Source: a virus (lineage: Duplodnaviria > Heunggongvirae > Uroviricota > Caudoviricetes). From it: a DNA stretch of 9,805 nucleotides. The notes under the pieces are model-generated. The model was not told the origin of the DNA. It did no database searches and saw nothing but the letters and a program-made list of their open reading frames with translations. Of this stretch, positions 1-9,805 are shown piece by piece. Both the position numbers and the translations under genes were made by a program. How positions within the stretch are numbered: position 1 is the stretch's first letter; every line of letters begins with the position of its first letter. Location of the stretch: positions 1-9,805 of the IMG/VR virus record IMGVR_UViG_2541047885_000009; one strand, written 5' to 3'.

Positions 1-594
1 GACGGTAAAAGTCTCACCCCGGATGATGTGCGTCCGATGCTTGAACAGATGGTGAAGGAGGCGGTAAGCCATATTCATGTTCCGCGTGATGGTCGTGACT
101 ACGATCCGGATGTTCTGCAGAAGGCGGTTCTGGATGCGGTGAGTGCCCTGCCGGCTCCACAGGACGGGCGTGATGCCACGGCACTGGAAATATTCCCGGC
201 GATTGATGAGCAAAAATCCTTTCCCCGGGGCACGTATGCCACACACCAGGGCGGACTCTGGCGGGCGTATGAAAAAACGCACGGGATGCGGGGATGGGAA
301 TGCCTGGTTGACGGGGTGGCGGATATTGACGTCAGCATGACGGGTGAGCGGTTGTTCTCTGTGGTGGTCCGGCAGAGCAGTGGCCAGCGTACGGAAAAAA
401 CATTTTCCCTGCCGGTGATGCTCTACCGCGGTGTGTTCAGAGCCGGTGAAACCTACCACCCCGGCGATACGGTGACGTGGGGGGGCTCGCTGTGGCACTG
501 CAACAGTATGACCGAAGATAAACCCGGAGAAGCTCATTCATCAGCCTGGACCCTGGCTGCAAAACGTGGGCGGGATGCAGGAGGCGGAAAATGA
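1..594 (+). CDS. Hypothetical phage protein, 5'-truncated by window edge (function unassigned; lies upstream of head-tail connector gene)
   Basis: Frame 1 is open from position 1 (DGKSLTPDDVRPMLEQ...) to the TGA at 592-594; the ORF track starts it at internal ATG 28. The stop overlaps the next gene start (ATGA at 591-594). It contains two copies of a P-x-DGRD motif. I recognise no family; position suggests a head-associated or accessory protein. Confidence 0.5.
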   Translation, partial: DGKSLTPDDVRPMLEQMVKEAVSHIHVPRDGRDYDPDVLQKAVLDAVSALPAPQDGRDATALEIFPAIDEQKSFPRGTYATHQGGLWRAYEKTHGMRGWECLVDGVADIDVSMTGERLFSVVVRQSSGQRTEKTFSLPVMLYRGVFRAGETYHPGDTVTWGGSLWHCNSMTEDKPGEAHSSAWTLAAKRGRDAGGGK

Positions 595-917
595 CGGCAT
601 TACTGACACTGGAAGAGATCAAGGCACATCTGCGTGTCGACCATGACGCGGATGATGACATGCTGATGGACAAGGTTCGTCAGGCTACCGCCGTGCTGCT
701 GGCCTACATTCAGGGCAGCCGGGATAAAGTGATCCGTGAGGACGGTGAACTGATCCCGGGCGAGGCATTAACCCGGATGAAGGGGGCTGCCATGCGACTG
801 ACCGGGATGCTGTACCGGAATCCGGATCTTGCGGAGCGGGAAGAACTGCTTCAGGGGGAGCTGCCGTTTTCTGTTTCCGTGCTGATTTACGATTTGCGTT
901 GTCCGACGGTGTTATGA
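591..917 (+). CDS. Phage head-tail connector protein (gp6-like, Phage_connect_1-type)
   Basis: 108 aa; the N-terminus MTALLTLEEIKAHLRVDHDADDDMLMDKVRQA is typical of gp6-like head-tail connector (DNA packaging) proteins. AGGAGG RBS at 579-584, 6 nt before the ATG at 591; ATGA overlap with the upstream ORF. Confidence 0.65.
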   Translation: MTALLTLEEIKAHLRVDHDADDDMLMDKVRQATAVLLAYIQGSRDKVIREDGELIPGEALTRMKGAAMRLTGMLYRNPDLAEREELLQGELPFSVSVLIYDLRCPTVL

Positions 918-926
918 GGAGGGGGA

Positions 927-1277
927 ATGGCAATATCTGCAGGTCGTCTGACACAGATGATAAGTGTTCTGAATCCGGTGTTAACCCGTAACGCTGCCGG
1001 AGAAATGACGGAAGAATGGGTGTCATGCGGGAAAATTCATGCGGATATCCGTGGCAGGAGCAGCCGGGAGCGGATGCAGTCCGGTGCGGAAATGGCGCAG
1101 GCGGAAATCCGCATCTGGGTGCGCGGTCAGTCCGGTCGGGAAATCACGGCAGCGTCACGACTTCATGTGCTGAGTGGTCCATGGCGTGACCGGATCCTGA
1201 ACGTTGTCGGGCTGCCCGTGCCGGATGCGACCGGCGGGCGTCTGGAAATTCTCTGTCGGCTGGGAGGGGAAAAATGA
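927..1277 (+). CDS. Phage head closure / head-tail adaptor protein (SPP1 gp16 / HK97 gp7-like)
   Basis: 116 aa; size, position after the connector gene and the Arg/Gly-rich C-terminal half match head-tail joining proteins. Strong RBS GAGGAGGGGG directly upstream of the ATG at 927; the stop overlaps the next start (ATGA at 1274-1277). Confidence 0.55.
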   Translation: MAISAGRLTQMISVLNPVLTRNAAGEMTEEWVSCGKIHADIRGRSSRERMQSGAEMAQAEIRIWVRGQSGREITAASRLHVLSGPWRDRILNVVGLPVPDATGGRLEILCRLGGEK

Positions 1278-1720
1278 TCGAAACCCTGCTGGATTTTTCG
1301 GGGCTGGAGGACATCAGCCGCGATTTGCAGCTTCTGAGTGGTGCGGAAAATAACCGGGTGCTGCGTGAGGCAACCCGTGCGGGTGCGAATGTGCTGAAAG
1401 AAGAAGTGGTGTCACGGGCACCGGTACGCAGGGGAAAACTGCGCCGCAATGTGGTGATCCTTTCCCGGCGCTCCCGCGATGGCGGGATGGAATCCGGTGT
1501 CCATATCCGTGGTGTTAATCCGGACACCGGTAACAGCGATAACACTATGAAGGCGGATAACCCGCGCAATGCTTTCTACTGGCGGTTTGTGGAAATGGGG
1601 ACTGTGAATATGCCACCGCACCCGTTTGTGCGCCCGGCGTTTGATGTGCGCAGTGAACAGGCAGCTCAGGTGGCGATTGCGCGGATGAACCGGGCCATTG
1701 ATGAGGTACTGAGACGATGA
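1274..1720 (+). CDS. HK97 gp10-family phage protein (tail completion / tail-component family)
   Basis: 148 aa; the C-terminal motif NAFYWRFVEMGT...MPPHPFVRPAFD is characteristic of the HK97 gp10 family. RBS GGGAGGGG upstream; ATGA overlap with the next gene at 1717-1720. Confidence 0.6.
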   Translation: MIETLLDFSGLEDISRDLQLLSGAENNRVLREATRAGANVLKEEVVSRAPVRRGKLRRNVVILSRRSRDGGMESGVHIRGVNPDTGNSDNTMKADNPRNAFYWRFVEMGTVNMPPHPFVRPAFDVRSEQAAQVAIARMNRAIDEVLRR

Positions 1721-2061
1721 CGGAGGCGGATTTGTATCCTCATCTGGCGCATCTTGCCGGCGGGCAGGTGTACCCGTATGTGGTCCCCCTGCTGGATGGC
1801 AGGCCGTCGGTGGCGCTTCCGTGGGTGGTTTTCAGCCTGATTTCATCGGTGTCAGCGGACGTGATGGGCGGGCAGGCGGAGTCCTCAGTGTCGGTGCAGA
1901 TAGACGTTTATGCCGGGACTGTGACGCAGGCGCGTCAGATACGTCAGGACGCCCGTGAAGCCATAATGCTGCTGGCCCCGGGATCCGTCAGTGAAATGCA
2001 GGACTATATTCCGGAAAACCGCTGTTACCGTGCAACCCTGGAGTTTCAGGTCACGGTGTGA
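1717..2061 (+). CDS. Tail terminator-like protein (gpU-like / DUF3168-type), immediately upstream of major tail gene
   Basis: 114 aa; position directly before the major tail protein gene and size match tail tube terminator proteins. Assignment is by synteny and general sequence character, with no sharp motif. Confidence 0.45.
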   Translation: MTEADLYPHLAHLAGGQVYPYVVPLLDGRPSVALPWVVFSLISSVSADVMGGQAESSVSVQIDVYAGTVTQARQIRQDAREAIMLLAPGSVSEMQDYIPENRCYRATLEFQVTV

Positions 2062-2088
2062 CTTTTTCTTTTTTCTACAAAACCATAC

Positions 2089-2109
2089 CCCGCCGCGTGC
2101 GGGTTTTTT
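2089..2109 (+). terminator. Terminator-like GC hairpin plus T-tract between tail terminator and major tail genes
   Basis: CCCGC (2089-2093) pairs with GCGGG (2099-2103) around a 5-nt loop, followed by TTTTTT (2104-2109). It lies in the 64-nt intergenic gap before the major tail gene RBS. Confidence 0.35.
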
Positions 2110-2125
2110 ATTATCAGGAGGCAGA

Positions 2126-2842
2126 ATGTCTGCTTTGTATGAACGCTCACAGCTGACGCAGGTGATGATTTCATCTGCCCCGGCGACTGCTGAAACTATG
2201 GATAAGGCGGAATATCTGCGCCTGGATTGCACCATCAAGGAAGTCCAGTTCACCGCCGGTCAGAAACAGGATATTGATGTGACCACGCTCTGCTCCACCG
2301 AGCAGGAGAACATCAACGGTCTGGGGGCGTCGTCTGAGATTTCCATGTCGGGTAATTTTTATCTGAATCAGGCCCAGAACGCCCTGCGTGATGCCTATGA
2401 CAATGACTCGTTGTATGCGTTTAAGGTGCAGTTTCCGTCCGGTAAGGGCTTTAAGTTCCTGGCGGAAGTGCGTCAGCACACCTGGTCATCCGGTACCAAC
2501 GGCGTGGTGGCAGCAACGTTTTCACTGCGTCTGAAAGGCAAACCGGTGTCCTATGTGGTACCGCTGGCGTTTGTGAAAAATCTGGATAAAACACTTACCG
2601 TGAATACAGGTGCGCTGCTGACAATGTCAGTCAGTGCCAACGGGGGAACGCCGCCGTATAAATACGCCTGGAAGAAGGATGGTCAGCCGGTTGACGGGCA
2701 GACGACAGACACCTTCAGTAAGCCAGGTGCGCAGTCCGCTGATGCGGGGAAATATACCTGCGTGGTGACCGATTCGGCAGAGAAAGCACAGAGTGTGACG
2801 TCTGTTGAATGCACCGTGACAGTGAGCGCAGCCGCCGGATAA
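2126..2842 (+). CDS. Major tail (tube) protein, lambda gpV-like, with C-terminal Ig-like domain
   Basis: 238 aa from the ATG at 2126, preceded by an AGGAGG RBS at 2116-2121. The motif AFKVQFPSGKGFKFLAEV resembles lambda gpV AYKIRFPNGTVDVFRGWV. The C-terminal ~80 aa (TLTVNTGALLTMSVSANGGTPPYKYAWKKDGQPV...AGKYTCVVTD...VECTVTV) has an Ig-like signature. The longer track ORF from 1991 is rejected because it spans the upstream hairpin and has no RBS. Confidence 0.8.
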   Translation: MSALYERSQLTQVMISSAPATAETMDKAEYLRLDCTIKEVQFTAGQKQDIDVTTLCSTEQENINGLGASSEISMSGNFYLNQAQNALRDAYDNDSLYAFKVQFPSGKGFKFLAEVRQHTWSSGTNGVVAATFSLRLKGKPVSYVVPLAFVKNLDKTLTVNTGALLTMSVSANGGTPPYKYAWKKDGQPVDGQTTDTFSKPGAQSADAGKYTCVVTDSAEKAQSVTSVECTVTVSAAAG

Positions 2843-2856
2843 GGGGATGGGTCATC

Positions 2857-3231
2857 ATGAAAAAGGATCTGAAAACGCTGGCGCTGGCCAGACTGTCAGG
2901 GTTTCGTCATAAAACGGTGAAGGTGCCGGAATGGGGTAATGTCAGCGTGGTGCTGCGGGAGCCTTCGGCAGAGGCCTGGTATCTGTGGCAGGAAGTGCTC
3001 AATGGTGATGGAGAGGATGACGATACCCTGTCGGTGGTGGCGAAAACCCGCCGTAACCTGGAAGCGGATGTGACGCTGTTCTGCGATGTCCTGTGTGATA
3101 CGGATCTGCAGCGGGTGTTCGCTCCGGACGACCGTGAGCAGGTGCTGGCCGTCTATGGTCCGGTACATGCCCGGTTGCTGCGTCAGGCACTGGAACTGAT
3201 CGCTGATGCAGAGTCGGCCAGAAAAAAGTAG
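2857..3231 (+). CDS. Tail assembly chaperone G-like protein
   Basis: 124 aa from the ATG at 2857 (MKKDLKTLALARL...), 14 nt after the major tail stop. Acidic region (GDGEDDDT). Ends at TAG 3229-3231 just after a slippery heptamer. Lies between the major tail and tape measure genes, as in lambda G. Confidence 0.75.
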   Translation: MKKDLKTLALARLSGFRHKTVKVPEWGNVSVVLREPSAEAWYLWQEVLNGDGEDDDTLSVVAKTRRNLEADVTLFCDVLCDTDLQRVFAPDDREQVLAVYGPVHARLLRQALELIADAESARKK

Positions 3232-3536
3232 CCCGCCCGGAAATTCGCTTTCTGATGCGACTTGCGCTCCGTCTGGGGCGCACCTTATCCGAACTGCGGC
3301 ACAGCCTGAGTGTGAGCGAGGCGATGATGTGGATGGAGTTCGACAGGGTATCCCCGCTGGGTGATGAGCGCGGGGATATCCGTAATGCACAGATCGTGAA
3401 AGCGGTTTTTGGGGCACAGGGGATGAATGTTGCACTGAAGGACGCCATGCTCTGCTGGGGCGAGGATGAGGATAAGCCGGAGGTGGATCCGTTTGCGGCG
3501 CTGGAAGACGCGCTGAGCTTTGCAGCACAGTCATGA
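2857..3536 (+). CDS. Tail assembly chaperone G-T fusion made by programmed -1 ribosomal frameshift (shift at 3222-3228)
   Basis: The -1 frame is open from the slippery site through to TGA 3534-3536 and matches track ORF 3255-3536 (...MRLALRLGRTLSELRHS...AAQS). That ORF has no RBS of its own. The arrangement matches the conserved G/GT frameshift of long-tailed phages. Confidence 0.7.
3222..3228 (+). other. Slippery heptamer A_AAA_AAG for -1 programmed frameshift (G to G-T)
   Basis: Zero-frame codons are GCC AGA AAA AAG TAG. The heptamer A AAA AAG at 3222-3228 is a canonical X_XXY_YYZ slippery site, placed 1 nt before the G stop codon. Confidence 0.7.
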
Positions 3537-3544
3537 ATGATGAG

Positions 3545-3565
3545 AACCGCTGAGGCGGTTTTTTT
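3545..3565 (+). terminator. Terminator-like hairpin plus T-tract between G-T and tape measure genes
   Basis: AACCGC (3545-3550) pairs with GCGGTT (3555-3560) around loop TGAG, followed by a T run through 3565. It sits 9 nt after the T-frame stop and 18 nt before the tape measure ATG. Confidence 0.35.
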
Positions 3566-3583
3566 ACGCCCGGAGAAAGGTGA

Positions 3584-6500
3584 ATGGCGACGTTACGTGA
3601 ACTGATTATCAAAATTTCGGCAAATTCGCAGTCATTCCAGTCGGAGATCCAGCGGGCTTCCCGCATGGGCAGTGAATATTACCGGACCCTGCAGAATGGC
3701 GGGCGTCAGGCTGCCGCAGTCGCCCGGGAGCAGCGACGCGCCCTGGCTGAGCTGAACAGCCAGTTGACGGAAATCCGCGCTTCAGCTGCCGGAACGGCGG
3801 GGGTATTTGCAGGTGCCTTTGCCACCGGACACCTGATTTCTCTGGCCGATGAATGGAGTTCCGTGAATGCCCGACTGAAACAGGCGTCGCAGTCATCCGA
3901 TGAATTTTCGTCATCACAGAAAGTGCTGATGGATATCAGCCAGCGGACGGGCACGGCATTTTCAGATAATGCGGCCCTGTTTGCCCGCTCGGCAGCCTCA
4001 ATGCGTGAATATGGTTACAGTGCTGATGATGTGCTGAAGGTGACGGAGGCCATTTCCACGGGGCTGAAAATCTCCGGTGCCAGTACGGCAGAGGCGGGCT
4101 CGGTGATCACCCAGTTCAGCCAGGCGCTGGCACAGGGTGTGTTACGCGGTGAGGAATTTAATTCGGTCAATGAAAGCGGAGACCGGATCGTACGTGCACT
4201 GGCTGCGGGTATGGGCGTGGCCCGTAAAGACCTTAAGGCGATGGCGGACGACGGCAAACTGACGGCGGATAAAGTCGTTCCTGCGTTAATCAGCCAGCTG
4301 GGGGTATTGCGTGATGAATATGCCGCCATGCCGGAAACGGTCTCTGACGGGATCACAAAGGTGGAAAACGCCTTTATGGCCTGGGTGGGTGGCGCGAATG
4401 AAGCCAGCGGAGCGACGAAAACGCTCTCCGGCGTGCTGAACGGTGTTGCCGGTAATATTGATAATGTGGCAACAGCCGCGGGGGCGCTGGTTGCCGTCGG
4501 GGTTGCCCGGTACTTTGGCAATATGGCCTCCGGAGCGGTGTCTGCCACGGCAGGACTTGTGACGGCAGCACGTAATGAAGTGGCACTGGCGGAAGCACAG
4601 CTCAGGGGGACGCAGATTGCCACGGCGCGGGCAAGGGCAGCCGTGTACCGTGCACAGCAGGCTGTGGCGGCAGCCCGCGGGACGGAGATGCAGATTGCTG
4701 CAGAAGCCCGTCTGGCGGCCACACAGGAACGCCTGAACAGAAATATTGCTGCCAGAACCGCAGCCCAGAATGCGCTGAACAGTACAACGGCGGTGGGCTC
4801 ACGTCTGATGACTGGTGCGTTGGGACTGGTTGGTGGCGTACCCGGACTGGTGATGCTGGGGGCAGCAGCATGGTATACGCTGTACCAGAATCAGGAGCAG
4901 GCCAGGGAGTCAGCGCGCCAGTATGCACTGACGATAGATGAAATCGCGCATAAAACGCCGTCAATGTCTTTGCCTGAAGCCTCAGATAATGAAGGACGAA
5001 CACGGGCGGCGCTGGCAGAGCAGAACCGGCTGATTGATGAACAGGCCAGCCGGGTGAAATCCCTGCAGGAAAAAATCGCTGGATATCAGTATGTTCTGGC
5101 TAACCCTGGCTGGACAACCGGTGACGGATTCATGATAAACCATCTGACATCGGTGAAGACCGTGACGGAAGGGCTTTCTCAGGCAACAGAGCAGCTTGCC
5201 GTTGAGCAGTCCCGTCTGGCACAGATGCAGGAAAAAGCGCAGTCCATTCAGGATGTGCTTGCCGGGCTGGAAGACCGTCGTGTGGCGTTAATTCGTCAGC
5301 AGGCGGCAGAGCAGAATAAGGTGTACCAGTCCATGCTGGTTATGAACGGTCAGCATACGGAATTCAACCGTCTGCTGGGGCTGGGTAATGAACTGCTTCA
5401 GCAGCGTCAGGGACTGGTGAATGTACCGTTACGGCTGCCGCAGGCCACCCTGGATGATAAACAGCAGAGCGCCCTGACAAAAACAGAACGTGAGCTGGCC
5501 CTGTCCCGACTGAAGGGGGAGGAAAAAGAGCGTGCCCGGCTGGGGTATGCGGCGGATGACCTTGGTTTTGTGGGGGATTCGTATCAGGAGGCGAGACAGC
5601 GTTATATCAGTAATGCTCTGGAAGCCTGGCGTAATAACGAGGCGAATAAACCCAAATCCCGGGGGGGAAAATCAGAGACGGAAAAAGCGGAAGACAGTTT
5701 TTCCCGGCTACTGAAGCAGCAGAAAGAGCAACTGGCACTGGCGGGTCAGAATACAGAGCTGGCGAAGCTGAAGTACCAGACTGCGCAGGGCGAACTGAAA
5801 ACCCTGACGGAGATGCAGAAGCAGGAACTGCTGCGCAATGCGGCCCTGATTGACCAGCAAAAAATCCGGGAACAGTTGCGATCCCGGGAAGAGACCCTGA
5901 AGAATGATAATGTGGCTGCGCGTGCATCAAATGAAGCCGAACTGCTGGGGTACGGGCAGGGAGAACGAGCCAGGGAACGCATGCGGGAGTTGCAGCAGAT
6001 CCGCGACAGCTTCCGCCAGAAGGATGCGGACCTTCAGTCTCAGTATCAGACCGGGGATATCAGTGAGGATTTTTACAGACAGGCACGGGCACAGAACGCG
6101 CAGTATCTGAGCGAACGCCTTAAGGACCAGGCAGCCTTTTATGCCGAATCGGATGCGCAGCGTGCGGACTGGCAGAAAGGCTTGCAGGAGGGGCTCAGTA
6201 ACTGGGTGGACAATGCATCCGATTACGCCTCTCAGGCAGCACAGCTGGCAACGGAGGGGATTTCAGGACTGGTGAATAACATCACGGAGATGCTGAACGG
6301 AAACAAAGTGGAATGGCGCAACTGGGCCTCATCCGTACTGCAGGAAATCTCAAAAGTTCTTATGAATGCCGCGATTGTCAACGGAATTAAGACGGCGGCA
6401 AACGGTATGTCCGGTGCGGGAGGATTTATTGGCAGCATTGGTGACTGGCTGGGCGGTGCGGTGGCCAATGCAAAAGGCGGCGTGTATACCTCGGCAAACC

Positions 6501-6826
6501 TGAGTGCGTACAGCAACAGCATTGTGGACACGCCCACGTACTTTGCGTTTGCAAAAGGGGCCGGGCTGATGGGGGAAGCCGGACCTGAAGCCATTATGCC
6601 CCTGACCCGGGCGGCGGATGGCTCGCTGGGCGTACGCGCGGTGGGCAGTATGAACGGCAGTGCCGGTCTGGTGTATTCCCCGGTCTACCACATCGCCATT
6701 CAGAATGACGGGGCTAACGGACAGATAGGGGCGGAGGCGGCAGGCAGTCTTGTGCAGCTGATTGACCAGCGGGTGCAGGCGGTGATGCTGTCCATGCGAC
6801 GTGACGGAGGAATGCTGAGTGGCTGA
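3584..6826 (+). CDS. Tail tape measure protein (lambda gpH-like)
   Basis: 1080 aa; RBS AGAAAGG upstream of the ATG at 3584. Largest gene in the tail cluster, Ala/Gln-rich coiled-coil sequence, two hydrophobic Gly/Ala-rich segments (about nt 4465-4570 and 4805-4875), and a C-terminal motif GLMGEAGPEAIMPL typical of lambda-family tape measure proteins. Lies between G-T and M. Confidence 0.9.
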   Translation: MATLRELIIKISANSQSFQSEIQRASRMGSEYYRTLQNGGRQAAAVAREQRRALAELNSQLTEIRASAAGTAGVFAGAFATGHLISLADEWSSVNARLKQASQSSDEFSSSQKVLMDISQRTGTAFSDNAALFARSAASMREYGYSADDVLKVTEAISTGLKISGASTAEAGSVITQFSQALAQGVLRGEEFNSVNESGDRIVRALAAGMGVARKDLKAMADDGKLTADKVVPALISQLGVLRDEYAAMPETVSDGITKVENAFMAWVGGANEASGATKTLSGVLNGVAGNIDNVATAAGALVAVGVARYFGNMASGAVSATAGLVTAARNEVALAEAQLRGTQIATARARAAVYRAQQAVAAARGTEMQIAAEARLAATQERLNRNIAARTAAQNALNSTTAVGSRLMTGALGLVGGVPGLVMLGAAAWYTLYQNQEQARESARQYALTIDEIAHKTPSMSLPEASDNEGRTRAALAEQNRLIDEQASRVKSLQEKIAGYQYVLANPGWTTGDGFMINHLTSVKTVTEGLSQATEQLAVEQSRLAQMQEKAQSIQDVLAGLEDRRVALIRQQAAEQNKVYQSMLVMNGQHTEFNRLLGLGNELLQQRQGLVNVPLRLPQATLDDKQQSALTKTERELALSRLKGEEKERARLGYAADDLGFVGDSYQEARQRYISNALEAWRNNEANKPKSRGGKSETEKAEDSFSRLLKQQKEQLALAGQNTELAKLKYQTAQGELKTLTEMQKQELLRNAALIDQQKIREQLRSREETLKNDNVAARASNEAELLGYGQGERARERMRELQQIRDSFRQKDADLQSQYQTGDISEDFYRQARAQNAQYLSERLKDQAAFYAESDAQRADWQKGLQEGLSNWVDNASDYASQAAQLATEGISGLVNNITEMLNGNKVEWRNWASSVLQEISKVLMNAAIVNGIKTAANGMSGAGGFIGSIGDWLGGAVANAKGGVYTSANLSAYSNSIVDTPTYFAFAKGAGLMGEAGPEAIMPLTRAADGSLGVRAVGSMNGSAGLVYSPVYHIAIQNDGANGQIGAEAAGSLVQLIDQRVQAVMLSMRRDGGMLSG

Positions 6827-7160
6827 GATAAAAACGCTGCATCTGGTCCCGCGTGAAGGGATGCAGGTGAGTGAGAAACCGTCGGTGGCGAGGGTACGGT
6901 TTGGTGACGGTTATGAACAGCGCCGCCCGACGGGACTTAATGCCCGACTGAAGACGTTTCAGGCGGTGTTCCGGGTGACGGATGAGGCGACCCGGCGATG
7001 GCTGGAAGAGTTTTTATCGTGGCATGGTGGTTACCGTGCCTTTTTGTGGCGACCGCCGAAACATAACCGGACGGTGAGGGTGGTGTGCCGGGAGTGGAGC
7101 GTCACAGATAACGCCAGGTACAGTGATTTCAGTTGTACGATTGAGCAGGTGGTGAACTGA
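6819..7160 (+). CDS. M: Minor tail protein M (lambda gpM homolog)
   Basis: 113 aa; by my recollection of lambda gpM it aligns along its length (PSVARVRFGDGYEQRRPTGLNARLKTF vs lambda PSVRKVRFGDGYSQRAPAGLNANLKTY; C-terminal EQVVN identical). GTG start at 6819 overlaps the tape measure stop (6824-6826). Confidence 0.9.
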   Translation: MAEIKTLHLVPREGMQVSEKPSVARVRFGDGYEQRRPTGLNARLKTFQAVFRVTDEATRRWLEEFLSWHGGYRAFLWRPPKHNRTVRVVCREWSVTDNARYSDFSCTIEQVVN

Positions 7161-7858
7161 TGCAGGATATTCACGAAGAAAGTCTGAGCGAGTCGGTTAA
7201 ATCAGAGCAGTCACCGCGGGTGGTACTCTGGGAAATCGACCTGACGGTACAGGGCGGTGAGCGGTATTTTTTCTGTAATGAGCTGAATGAAAAAGGGGAG
7301 CCGGTCACCTGGCAGGGGCGGCAATATCAGGCATACCCGATTGACGGCAGCGGTTTTGAGATGAGCGGGAAGGGCAGCAGTGCCAGACCGTCGCTGACGG
7401 TGTCCAATCTGTTCGGTCTGGTCACCGGGATGGCGGAAGACCTGCAGAGTCTGGTGGGGGCCACGGTGGTCCGCCGCCGGGTGTATGCCCGTTTTCTGGA
7501 TGCGGTGAATTTCGTTGCGGGCAATCCGGAGGCCGACCCGGAGCAGGAGCTGACTGACCGGTGGGTGGTGGAGCAGATGTCAGCGCTGACAGCCATGACG
7601 GCCTCGTTTGTGCTGGCCACACCGACCGAGACGGACGGGGCGCTGTTTCCCGGTCGTATCATGCTGGCGAACACCTGTATGTGGACCTGCCGCTCTGATG
7701 AGTGTGGTTACACGGGCGGGGCTGTGGCGGATGAGTTCGATAAACCCACCACGGATATCCGTAAGGACAGATGCAGCAAGTGCATGCGCGGGTGTGAACT
7801 GCGCAGGAATGTCGGCAATTTTGGCGGTTTCCTTTCCATTAATAAACTTTCGCAGTAA
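7160..7858 (+). CDS. L: Minor tail protein L (lambda gpL homolog, Cys-cluster / Fe-S type)
   Basis: 232 aa; by my recollection of lambda gpL it is near-identical over long stretches (VVLWEIDLT..GGERYFFCNE.NEKGEPVTWQGRQYQ, FPGRIMLANTC, NVGNFGGFLSINKLSQ at the C-terminus). Conserved Cys cluster at nt ~7675-7800. Start ATG overlaps the M stop (TGATG at 7158-7162). Confidence 0.95.
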   Translation: MQDIHEESLSESVKSEQSPRVVLWEIDLTVQGGERYFFCNELNEKGEPVTWQGRQYQAYPIDGSGFEMSGKGSSARPSLTVSNLFGLVTGMAEDLQSLVGATVVRRRVYARFLDAVNFVAGNPEADPEQELTDRWVVEQMSALTAMTASFVLATPTETDGALFPGRIMLANTCMWTCRSDECGYTGGAVADEFDKPTTDIRKDRCSKCMRGCELRRNVGNFGGFLSINKLSQ

Positions 7859-7863
7859 ATCCG

Positions 7864-7895
7864 TAAGCGTCAACGGAGCACCGTATTGACGCTTA
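7864..7895. repeat. Internal palindrome (10-bp arms) in the IS66 terminus, overlapping the tnpC stop codon
   Basis: TAAGCGTCAA (7864-7873) is the exact reverse complement of TTGACGCTTA (7886-7895), with a 12-nt spacer. On the + strand it is followed by TTTATT. Confidence 0.6.
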
Positions 7896-9506
7896 TTTAT
7901 TGGTGAGTACTACGTTCCATGGCAGGAGTTCGTCAACTCGGTTGGAAGGCCATTCCGGCAGTACGCTCAGGATATGGCGCAGATACGCTTCCGGATCGAT
8001 ACCGTTCAGACGGCAGGTGCCGATCAGCCCGTACAACAGTGCTCCACGCTCGCCGCCGTGATCGCTGCCAAAGAACATAAAGTTTTTCTTTCCGAGACAG
8101 ACTGCACGAAGCGCTCTTTCCGCAGCATTATTATCCGCCTCCGCCAGACCGTCATCACTGTAATAACAGAGGGCATCCCACTGATTCAGTACATAGCTGA
8201 ACGCTTCGCCCAGTCTGGATTTTTTCGACAGCGTACCATTCTTCTCCACCATCCATTCATGCAGCGACGTCAGTAACACTTTGCTTCGCTGCTGCCTGAC
8301 GGCAAGACGCTCTGACTCCGGTAATCCCCGTATTTCATCCTCGATGGCGTACAGTTCACTGATTCGCTTCAGGGCTTCTTCTGCCGTCGCACTTTTGCTG
8401 CTGATGTATACATCGTGGATTTTTCGCCGGGCATGGGCCCAGCACGCAACTTCTGTCAGTGCACCACCTTCACGTTCTGCACTGAACAACCTGTCGTAAC
8501 CTGTGAACGCATCCGCCTGCAGGATACCCCGGAAGGGGCGGAGGTGTTGCTCCGGGTGTTTCCCCTGCCGGTTCGGCGAGTACGCGAACCAGACCGCTGG
8601 AGGAGATGACGAACCCACATTGCGATCATCCCGGACATACGTCCAGATACGCCCTGTTTTCGCCTTTTTCTGACCCGGTGCCAGTACCTTTACCGGTGTG
8701 TCATCAGTGTGAACCTTGCGGGTGTTCATTACATAACGGTACAGGGCATCATTCACCGGTGTCATTAACTGGCAGCACGCGTCAACCCAGTTGGAGAGTA
8801 AGGCCCGGCTCAGTTCGACACCCTGGCGGGCAAAGATTTCACTCTGACGATACAGTGGCAGATGTTCGCAGTATTTTCCCGTTAACACGCGGGCAAGTAA
8901 TCCGGGGCCCGCGATACCACGCTCTATCGGGCGGGACGGCGCCGGTGCTTCAACAATACAGTCACATTTTGTACAGGCTTTTTTTACCCGTTCTGTGCGG
9001 ATCACTTTCAGGGCACTGCTCACCAGTTCCAGCTGTTCAGCGCTGACTTCCCCCAGATAATCCAGCTCACCGCCACACTCCGGGCAACAGCTTTCTTCTG
9101 GCTCCAGGCGGTGTATTTCACGGGGAAGGTGTGCCGGTAACGGACGACGATGGCGCGACTGTCGCAACTGGCGGGGAACCTGAGGATCGTCTTCCCGCCC
9201 ACTGTAACGATCGCTGTCCTGTTCACGTTGTTTCAGCAGAGCCTCAGCCAGTTCAACTTCACGACGCAGTTTTTCAGAACGGGTACCGAACAGCATCCGG
9301 CGCAGTTTTTCTATCTGAGCCCGCAGATGTTCTATTTCCCGTTCATCTTCTTCGATCTTTTCTTCGGCACGTGTCAGTGCAGAGCGCAGGAAGGCTTCCG
9401 TCTCTTCAACCAGACTCAGTTGCTGGTCTTTCTGACGGAGGGCTTCAGCCTGCTCAGAGAGCAACCTTTCCAGCTCTGCGATGCGAATGAGGTATTTCTG
9501 ACTCAT
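7893..9506 (-). CDS. tnpC: IS66-family transposase TnpC (orf3)
   Basis: 537 aa, uninterrupted. N-terminal leucine-rich coiled coil (MSQKYLIRIAELERLLSEQAEALRQKDQQL...), Cys-rich zinc-finger-like motif (CCPECGG...CTKCDC), and a large C-terminal catalytic region. Length and architecture are typical of IS66 TnpC. Confidence 0.9.
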   Translation of the reverse strand: MSQKYLIRIAELERLLSEQAEALRQKDQQLSLVEETEAFLRSALTRAEEKIEEDEREIEHLRAQIEKLRRMLFGTRSEKLRREVELAEALLKQREQDSDRYSGREDDPQVPRQLRQSRHRRPLPAHLPREIHRLEPEESCCPECGGELDYLGEVSAEQLELVSSALKVIRTERVKKACTKCDCIVEAPAPSRPIERGIAGPGLLARVLTGKYCEHLPLYRQSEIFARQGVELSRALLSNWVDACCQLMTPVNDALYRYVMNTRKVHTDDTPVKVLAPGQKKAKTGRIWTYVRDDRNVGSSSPPAVWFAYSPNRQGKHPEQHLRPFRGILQADAFTGYDRLFSAEREGGALTEVACWAHARRKIHDVYISSKSATAEEALKRISELYAIEDEIRGLPESERLAVRQQRSKVLLTSLHEWMVEKNGTLSKKSRLGEAFSYVLNQWDALCYYSDDGLAEADNNAAERALRAVCLGKKNFMFFGSDHGGERGALLYGLIGTCRLNGIDPEAYLRHILSVLPEWPSNRVDELLPWNVVLTNK

Positions 9507-9536
9507 GACCGTTTTTATAATGCGGTCAGGAGTTTT

Positions 9537-9805
9537 TTACAATATTGTCAGTGAGTTACGGCTGGATGTTTTTGGCTGACGCCAGTCCAGCTTATCGAGG
9601 AGCATTGCCAGTTGCGAGCGGGTAATGGATACCTTGCCGTCACGTACCGCAGGCCAGATAAACTGGCCTTCCTCCAGGCGTTTGGTGAACAGGCACAGAC
9701 CATCAGCATCAGCCCAAAGAATTTTGACGGTGTCACCCCGTCGGCCACGGAAGATAAACAGGTGACCGGAGAAGGGATTATCATTCAGCACATGTTGTAC
9801 CTGTT
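9537..9805 (-). CDS. tnpB: IS66-family accessory protein TnpB (orf2), N-terminus truncated by window end
   Basis: The translation ...KVQHVLNDNPFSGHLFIFRGRRGDTVKILWADADGLCLFTKRLEEGQFIWP... matches the conserved IS66 orf2 core (DxPFSGHLFIFRGRRGD...LWxDxDGLCLFTKRLE). The frame stays open to position 9805, so the true start lies beyond the window; the track start at 9791 is an internal GTG. Confidence 0.85.
   Translation of the reverse strand, partial: QVQHVLNDNPFSGHLFIFRGRRGDTVKILWADADGLCLFTKRLEEGQFIWPAVRDGKVSITRSQLAMLLDKLDWRQPKTSSRNSLTIL

Follow-up and report, generated by a model that had tools for sequence, protein, structure and literature searches.

Insertion sequences (IS) are known to inactivate lambdoid prophages of Escherichia coli, IS629 in the prophages of O157:H7 Sakai being an example. 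Polar insertions in lambda operons, late genes included, and the suppression of their polarity by N/Q antitermination were reportedly described by Forbes and Herskowitz in 1982. The cases closest to the present locus are found in strains AVS0343 and AVS0155 (NZ_CP124517.1), where ISEc23, an IS66-family element, is inserted in K of a lambdoid prophage with the target duplication GTATTTTC, splitting K into two pseudogene fragments. In strain 2013C-3181, an IS approximately 90% identical to ISEc23 lies between I and J of a related prophage.

The locus analysed here, referred to as the window (the whole stretch of DNA, 9,805 nt), contains the late structural region of an E. coli lambdoid prophage with an HK97-type head and a lambda-type tail module, followed by an incomplete ISEc23 (Table 1). 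The most probable reading is a simple transposition of ISEc23 into the 10-nt spacer between L and K, with a probable consequence for the expression of K; we put the probability of this reading at roughly 0.8. The prophage is of the same type as those of AVS0343 and AVS0155 (98.7%) and has the same IS in the same orientation. In those strains, however, the IS sits 148 bp further downstream, inside K, whereas the allele in the window spares the K reading frame. As with IS629 in the Sakai prophages, a resident prophage has received a host IS in its late or structural operon, but the insertion here is intergenic and destroys no reading frame. The polar insertions in lambda operons likewise place an IS inside a Q-dependent late operon, where Q-modified polymerase should relieve the polarity; the loss of L-K translational coupling that we infer for the present locus would be an extra effect, which antitermination cannot repair. 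The element itself does not differ from the ISEc23 copies annotated in RefSeq, having the same terminal repeats, length (2532 bp) and 8-bp duplication, and the TnpC of the WP_000080195.1 copy. It is set apart from those copies by its insertion site alone, and an insertion at this site does not occur in any of 5,426 complete E. coli genomes. An ISEc23 insertion in a prophage late operon is an ordinary event, known in kind, and involves no new element or mechanism.

Table 1. Features of the window. Positions count from the first letter of the window; a dot indicates that no strand is assigned.
Feature	Position	Strand	Evidence	Remarks
Head-tail connector genes, major tail protein, G/T chaperones	upstream part of window	+		
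Tape measure	3584-6826	+		1080 aa
M	6819-7160	+	Pfam Phage_min_tail (PF05939), E=8e-29	113 aa; directly upstream of L
L, tail tip	7160-7858	+	Pfam Phage_tail_L (PF05100), E=1e-90	232 aa; complete
Target site GTAAATCC	7855-7862	.		Left copy of 8-bp target-site duplication; overlaps L stop codon
ISEc23 (IS66 family)	7863-9805	-		1943 of 2532 bp; entered from tnpC-proximal end
Terminal inverted repeat	7863-7886	.		~24 bp; starts GTAAGCGT
Hairpin	7863-7896	+	RNA fold	Terminal 34 nt of IS; overlaps tnpC stop codon; followed by UUAUUGGU
tnpC, DDE transposase	7893-9506	-	Pfam	537 aa; intact
tnpB, 3' part	9537-9805	-	TnpB_IS66 (PF05717), E=6e-27	88 of 116 codons; cut by window end (scaffold gap)

Late genes and the empty site

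This prophage type is common: of the 5,426 complete E. coli genomes, 1,239 contain 80% or more of the 7.8 kb of phage DNA in the window. The lambda-type tail tip module has the order M-L-K-I-J. M and L are in the window, and K, I and the start of J lie past the IS in L025, an IMG/VR contig with the same insertion (see below). L was predicted to have been left intact, and its protein does cover positions 3-206 of the 206 in the Phage_tail_L profile and ends in ...INKLSQ, as it does in AVS0343. The stop codon TAA (7856-7858) is followed by ATCC at 7859-7862 and by GTAAGCG from 7863.

The DNA through TAAATCC is identical in relatives that are uninterrupted at this point. These relatives, including strain N32, L021, L022 and AVS0343, read CAG TAA ATCC CGGTTT ATG, with the ATG of K 10 nt past the L stop codon, equivalent to position 7869 of the window. 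The empty site is CAGTAAATCCCGGTTTATG in L001, L021, L022 and L026. The prophage of N32 is 99.7% identical to the window over 7.8 kb, has the empty site and shows the normal order L-K-I-(sodC)-J-lom. Comparison with uninterrupted relatives, which had been proposed as a check, thus places the insertion just ahead of the K start, in agreement with the original prediction. K, I and J had also been noted as missing from the remainder of the window, and from 7863 to 9805 the open reading frames and Pfam matches are indeed those of tnpC and part of tnpB only.

Identity of the element

From 7863 to 9805, the DNA shows 99.7-99.9% identity to copies with the RefSeq annotation 'IS66-like element ISEc23', and the name used here rests on copies so named by RefSeq/PGAP. 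TnpC carries the four IS66 domains LZ_Tnp_IS66 (PF13007), zf-IS66 (PF13005), DDE_Tnp_IS66 (PF03050, E=9e-98) and DDE_Tnp_IS66_C (PF13817), and does not differ at any of its 537 residues from TnpC of the CCUG 73778 copy (WP_000080195.1). The proposed membership in the IS66 family is therefore borne out. The gene set of ISEc23 is tnpA-tnpB-tnpC. The window stops inside tnpB, and tnpA is outside it; in L025 and in the ENA contig L019, which carry the same allele, tnpB is full-length (116 aa) and tnpA encodes 141 aa (HTH_Tnp_1). Comparison of the left IS end with the reverse complement of the right end in L025 gives 20 matches in 24 positions, and each end starts with GTAAGCGT. IS66-family members of Pseudomonas have the same terminal start as ISEc23 (PMC12888890). 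Chance similarity is not an issue, as the identification is by homology (the DDE_Tnp_IS66 match) and not by a short motif.

Boundary and target duplication

Base-by-base reading covered seven other ISEc23 copies with unrelated surroundings: in K of another prophage, the pap region, a P2-like tail fibre region, plasmid traU, a prophage Rz gene, a genomic island and L025. All seven run from GTAAGCG to CGCTTAC, are 2532 bp long and are flanked by perfect 8-bp direct repeats abutting the IS ends. The duplications of these bounded copies are GTATTTTC, AGTAAATC, GGTAATTT, GCAGATGC, CAACATCA, GAAAATTC and GTAAATCC, and there are further ones among the IMG/VR loci. As the seven copies fix the ends of the element, its true terminus in the window is at 7863, with GTAAGCG as predicted, and 7859-7862 is phage DNA. 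The possibility named earlier that an alignment would put the true end elsewhere does not apply. The window itself holds the left copy of GTAAATCC only.

Many hits to the IS alone seemed to begin 10-38 nt before 7863. This apparent extension into the flank arises because hits were ranked by the length of the extension. The idea that the IS ends further out and supplies the stop codon of L was rejected after the flanks of the hits had been read.

The allele in other contigs

An exact search of IMG/VR for CAGTTTACGCTTAC-GTAAATCC-CGGTTTATGAC returned one contig, L025. It has the identical left junction, a full-length IS and then CGCTTAC followed by GTAAATCC and CGGTTTATG. Beyond the IS are an intact K (247 aa, with JAB and NlpC/P60 domains, identical to K of strain N32), I (PF06805) and the start of J. 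L019 contains L, the whole IS and then GTAA, the first 4 nt of the duplication, at which the contig ends. The duplication of GTAAATCC that had been predicted from the left side is thus exact in L025 and begun in L019, and the K-like gene expected on the far side is found in L025, right after the second copy.

L020 and L092 have the left junction as well. An identical L protein is encoded by three more contigs, which break 3-4 nt past the L stop codon and hence no more than 1 nt from the IS boundary (7862); short-read assemblies break in this way at repeats. For annotation, the value of the IS is that it marks where short-read assemblies of this prophage type break. None of the 5,426 complete E. 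coli genomes has either the left or the right junction. A search of a collection of one genome per species gave no left junction, a search of JGI metagenome contigs gave no right junction, and no phage record spanning a junction was found. Derivation of the allele by an adjacent 148-bp deletion from a K::ISEc23 ancestor like that of AVS0343 was rejected, as L025 and L019 read GTAA(ATCC) past the right end and not GTATTTTC.

Simple insertion or rearrangement

The window matches scaffold KE701652.1 of GCA_000460275.1 without mismatch over 8646 nt. Its end is a scaffold gap of 10 N inside the IS, and the evidence for the far side comes from the sibling contigs and not from the source genome. The contig after the gap (626 nt) runs from tnpB to the inside of tnpA (471 nt of IS) and then continues into an M-like fragment, where the scaffold ends. 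This fragment, of 155 nt, is 98.7% identical to positions 6837-6991 of the window (two of the 155 positions differ).

Read literally, the scaffold suggests that in the source genome a rearrangement, IS-mediated or illegitimate, truncated the IS inside tnpA and joined it to M of a second prophage, K, I and J being lost or relocated. The switch from tnpA to M-like sequence occurs without microhomology, and in L092 the left junction of the window is likewise combined with a foreign right flank, with no duplication. However, the two contigs that flank the gap have 96 nt of overlap, the one after the gap is short, and both the IS and M are repeats, so that scaffolding errors are to be expected; the join of tnpA to M-like sequence is found in none of the 5,426 complete E. 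coli genomes. L092 is a short-read metagenome contig that crosses the 2.5-kb repeat at 3.9x coverage, and it therefore carries the same ambiguity as the source scaffold. L025 and L019, on the other hand, carry a full-length IS with the expected duplication, as far as each extends. A rearrangement in the source genome is accordingly considered unlikely, and the join after the gap is most likely a scaffolding artefact, given that IS and M are both repeats.

Single origin or repeated insertion

The same allele is present in at least five assemblies, in one of them on a different M/H backbone. This is L025, which has only positions 7141-9805 in common with the window (99.8%), its M and H being unrelated at the DNA level. 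The two differ at five positions in 7143-7689, four of them within L and one just upstream of the L start, and not at all in the IS.

An identical junction next to a different backbone, together with differences in L and none in the IS, might suggest that ISEc23 has a recurrent hot spot in the L/K spacer and that the shared junctions are independent ISEc23 insertions and not one inherited allele. Related prophages have three IS66-family insertions in the segment from L to J, with one orientation common to all three, and the target of the CCUG 73778 copy shares the 11-mer GCAGTAAATCC with the window flank, at an offset of 1 bp. However, true sharing of an 11-mer is limited to CCUG 73778, and the shared flanks of the top hits are a product of the ranking by extension length described above. 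Moreover, 62 distinct ISEc23 flanks, taken from IMG/VR and from the species genomes, are AT-rich and have no motif. Three of the five differences between L025 and the window are within 60 nt of the mosaic breakpoint, so that a single origin followed by recombination upstream of L suffices. Independent hits are the weaker alternative to a single insertion, and we regard them as quite unlikely. A strong preference of ISEc23 for targets resembling GCAGTAAATC was also considered and rejected, as the flanks give only scattered matches (CGCAGGTAATTT, CGCAGCAGATGC and others).

One insertion with later recombination upstream of L is the simplest reading, and it implies that the insertion is not brand new. 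Of the suggestion of a recent insertion with K, I and J intact on the far side, the second part holds in L025 for K, I and the start of J, while the recency is doubtful, given the number of assemblies that share the allele.

The terminal hairpin

A terminator-like hairpin facing the phage operon had been proposed at the tnpC end of the element. The hairpin is predicted with confidence: it has 14 pairs, with bulges, and a folding energy of -17.4 kcal/mol (z=-5.3; none of 200 shuffled sequences folds as well). The terminator part of the proposal is not supported. A terminator scan of positions 7600-8200 gave no terminator-like site and did not call the hairpin. An intrinsic terminator is a G+C-rich stem-loop directly followed by a U-tract, whereas here the stem is bulged and the tail is UUAUUGGU. 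In the related IS66-family ends of ISKox1, ISKpn24 and ISEc22, the blocks GTAAGCGT and CCGTATTGACG are conserved, but the pairing is broken and no compensating changes restore it. There is thus no covariation support for the hairpin, which is therefore specific to the ISEc23 lineage. There is nothing in support of a selected role as a terminator. That the hairpin is nevertheless a functional intrinsic terminator, blocking the late transcript at the IS boundary and silencing K, I and J transcriptionally, is very improbable: its stability and its position ahead of UUAUUGGU on the late-operon strand speak for such a role, but the scan makes no call, the pairing is not kept in related elements, and Q-modified polymerase reads through hairpin terminators (PMC12360218), a Q-type gene being present in the closest relative.

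Consequences for K and the tail

Under simple insertion, as seen in L025, ISEc23 transposed into the L/K spacer and duplicated GTAAATCC, including the stop codon of L. K keeps its ATG and 14 nt of native upstream sequence, but it is now 2.54 kb downstream and separated from L by an element with genes antisense to the late operon. In the sequences of the relatives and of L025, K lacks a Shine-Dalgarno sequence. As K also starts only 10 nt after the L stop codon, it probably depends on translational coupling to L. Ribosomes terminating on L would now be approximately 2.5 kb from K, the coupling would be broken, and the output of K should drop.

In N32, the Q-type antiterminator gene quuD and the lysis genes are upstream of the late region, all in one orientation. 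The late transcript of such phages is made by Q-modified polymerase. Polymerase loaded with Q is described as resistant to termination (PMC12360218), so that K-I-J are probably still transcribed on induction, across the antisense IS. As K lacks a Shine-Dalgarno sequence and follows L so closely, loss of L-K coupling would be a more likely defect than a block in transcription. Expression of K from an outward promoter at the tnpA end was considered and dropped, as a promoter scan there found none.

The original prediction of a tail-defective prophage does not follow automatically, since a Q-type antiterminator precedes the late operon of the closest relative. The expected phenotype is reduced or lost tail-tip assembly rather than certain loss, and the prophage is not necessarily dead. 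The IS is a sign that the tail of this prophage may be impaired although all of the tail reading frames may be intact. The allele would also offer a convenient natural experiment on two textbook ideas, the suppression of insertion polarity by Q and translational coupling from L to K in a lambdoid late operon.

A more tentative suggestion, and on balance a rather unlikely one, is that the prophage bearing the IS may still be a working phage, with ISEc23 carried between hosts inside virions. Q-modified polymerase would then have to read antisense through the 2.5-kb IS, and K would have to be translated well enough when uncoupled. If true, carriage in virions would explain the presence of the L-IS-K allele on two M/H backbones and in a contig classed as viral.

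Mosaic structure and IS elements in the tail operon

In the comparison with L025, an IMG/VR sibling contig with the same L|ISEc23 junction, there is a sharp mosaic breakpoint at the M/L boundary. From this point onward L025 and the window are 99.8% identical, and the upstream M and tape-measure genes of L025 are unrelated to those of the window. Thus, the L-IS-K block is found on two different backbones. The segment from L to J carries three IS66-family insertions in the window prophage and its relatives, all in a common orientation. A prophage of the window type in E. coli AVS0343 has ISEc23 within K, in the same orientation and 148 bp downstream of the window site (duplication GTATTTTC), and K is present there as two pseudogene fragments split by the element. 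The lom gene of this prophage is also split, by ISEc12 (IS21 family). In the related prophage of E. coli 2013C-3181, a different member of the IS66 family, which shares about 90% identity with ISEc23 and is antisense to the tail operon, lies in the I/J gap; an ompC porin gene is inserted between M and L. In the closest relative without the IS, the prophage of E. coli N32, the annotation gives L as a pseudogene with a frameshift; this prophage, too, may therefore have a defective tail, though for another reason.

Positions of the loci and features compared
Feature	Record	Positions
M/L mosaic breakpoint	window	7141
ISEc23 end compared with other IS66-family ends (L095-L099)	window	7863-7900
Shared 11-mer	window	7852-7862
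Shared 11-mer, pap region, CCUG 73778	L002	2500-2510, 5044-5054
Counterpart of scaffold M-like sequence	window	6837-6991
ISEc23 within K, AVS0343	NZ_CP124517.1 (L001)	9870-13153
Related prophage, 2013C-3181	NZ_CP027312.1 (L094)	1637-8284
Relative without IS, N32	L026	15160-15857
ISEc23 contig	ENA ERZ791802 NODE-6657 (L092)	1-4284, reverse strand
Source scaffold past window end	KE701652.1 (L017)	8647-9282
ISEc23, Escherichia phage 4A7	NC_049946.1 (L100)	4031-6447

Target sites and IS ends

The 11-mer GCAGTAAATCC is common to the window and to the ISEc23 target in the pap region of E. coli CCUG 73778, which is otherwise unrelated to the window target. The two insertions are offset by 1 bp, with duplications AGTAAATC versus GTAAATCC, and a third ISEc23 copy (L007) has GTAAATAA. 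ISEc23 may have a weak preference for GTAAAT-like sites, judging from these sequences; most of the 62 flanks compared do not show it. The blocks GTAAGCGT and CCGTATTGACG are kept in the ends of ISKox1, ISKpn24 and ISEc22, with a variable spacer between them, and probably represent the segments of the inverted repeat that the transposase recognises. The ISEc23 palindrome is not conserved in these ends.

Anomalous junctions

Contig L092 carries a full-length ISEc23 with the same left junction to L as the window. No target duplication is found around this copy, and its right flank (AATCGTCAGTCCGGCGATGACCG...) is similar to that of another ISEc23 locus (strain 1162invT2). L092 is either a chimeric assembly or the result of recombination between IS copies. 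In the source scaffold, a 10-N gap separates two contigs that share a 96-nt overlap. Within tnpA, the contig after the gap switches from the IS to an M-like gene, with no microhomology at the switch. This M-like sequence begins 155 nt before the scaffold end and differs from the window at 2 of 155 positions. Either the join is a scaffolding error, or a truncated IS really does lie next to a second prophage.

ISEc23 in phage genomes

Deposited genomes of lambdoid phages do include ISEc23: a full copy is carried in the accessory region of Escherichia phage 4A7 and likewise in the Lambda_4C10, 1W and 3W records (genomes of about 49 kb). In these phages it sits between a tail protein gene and the sitABCD iron/manganese transporter cluster.
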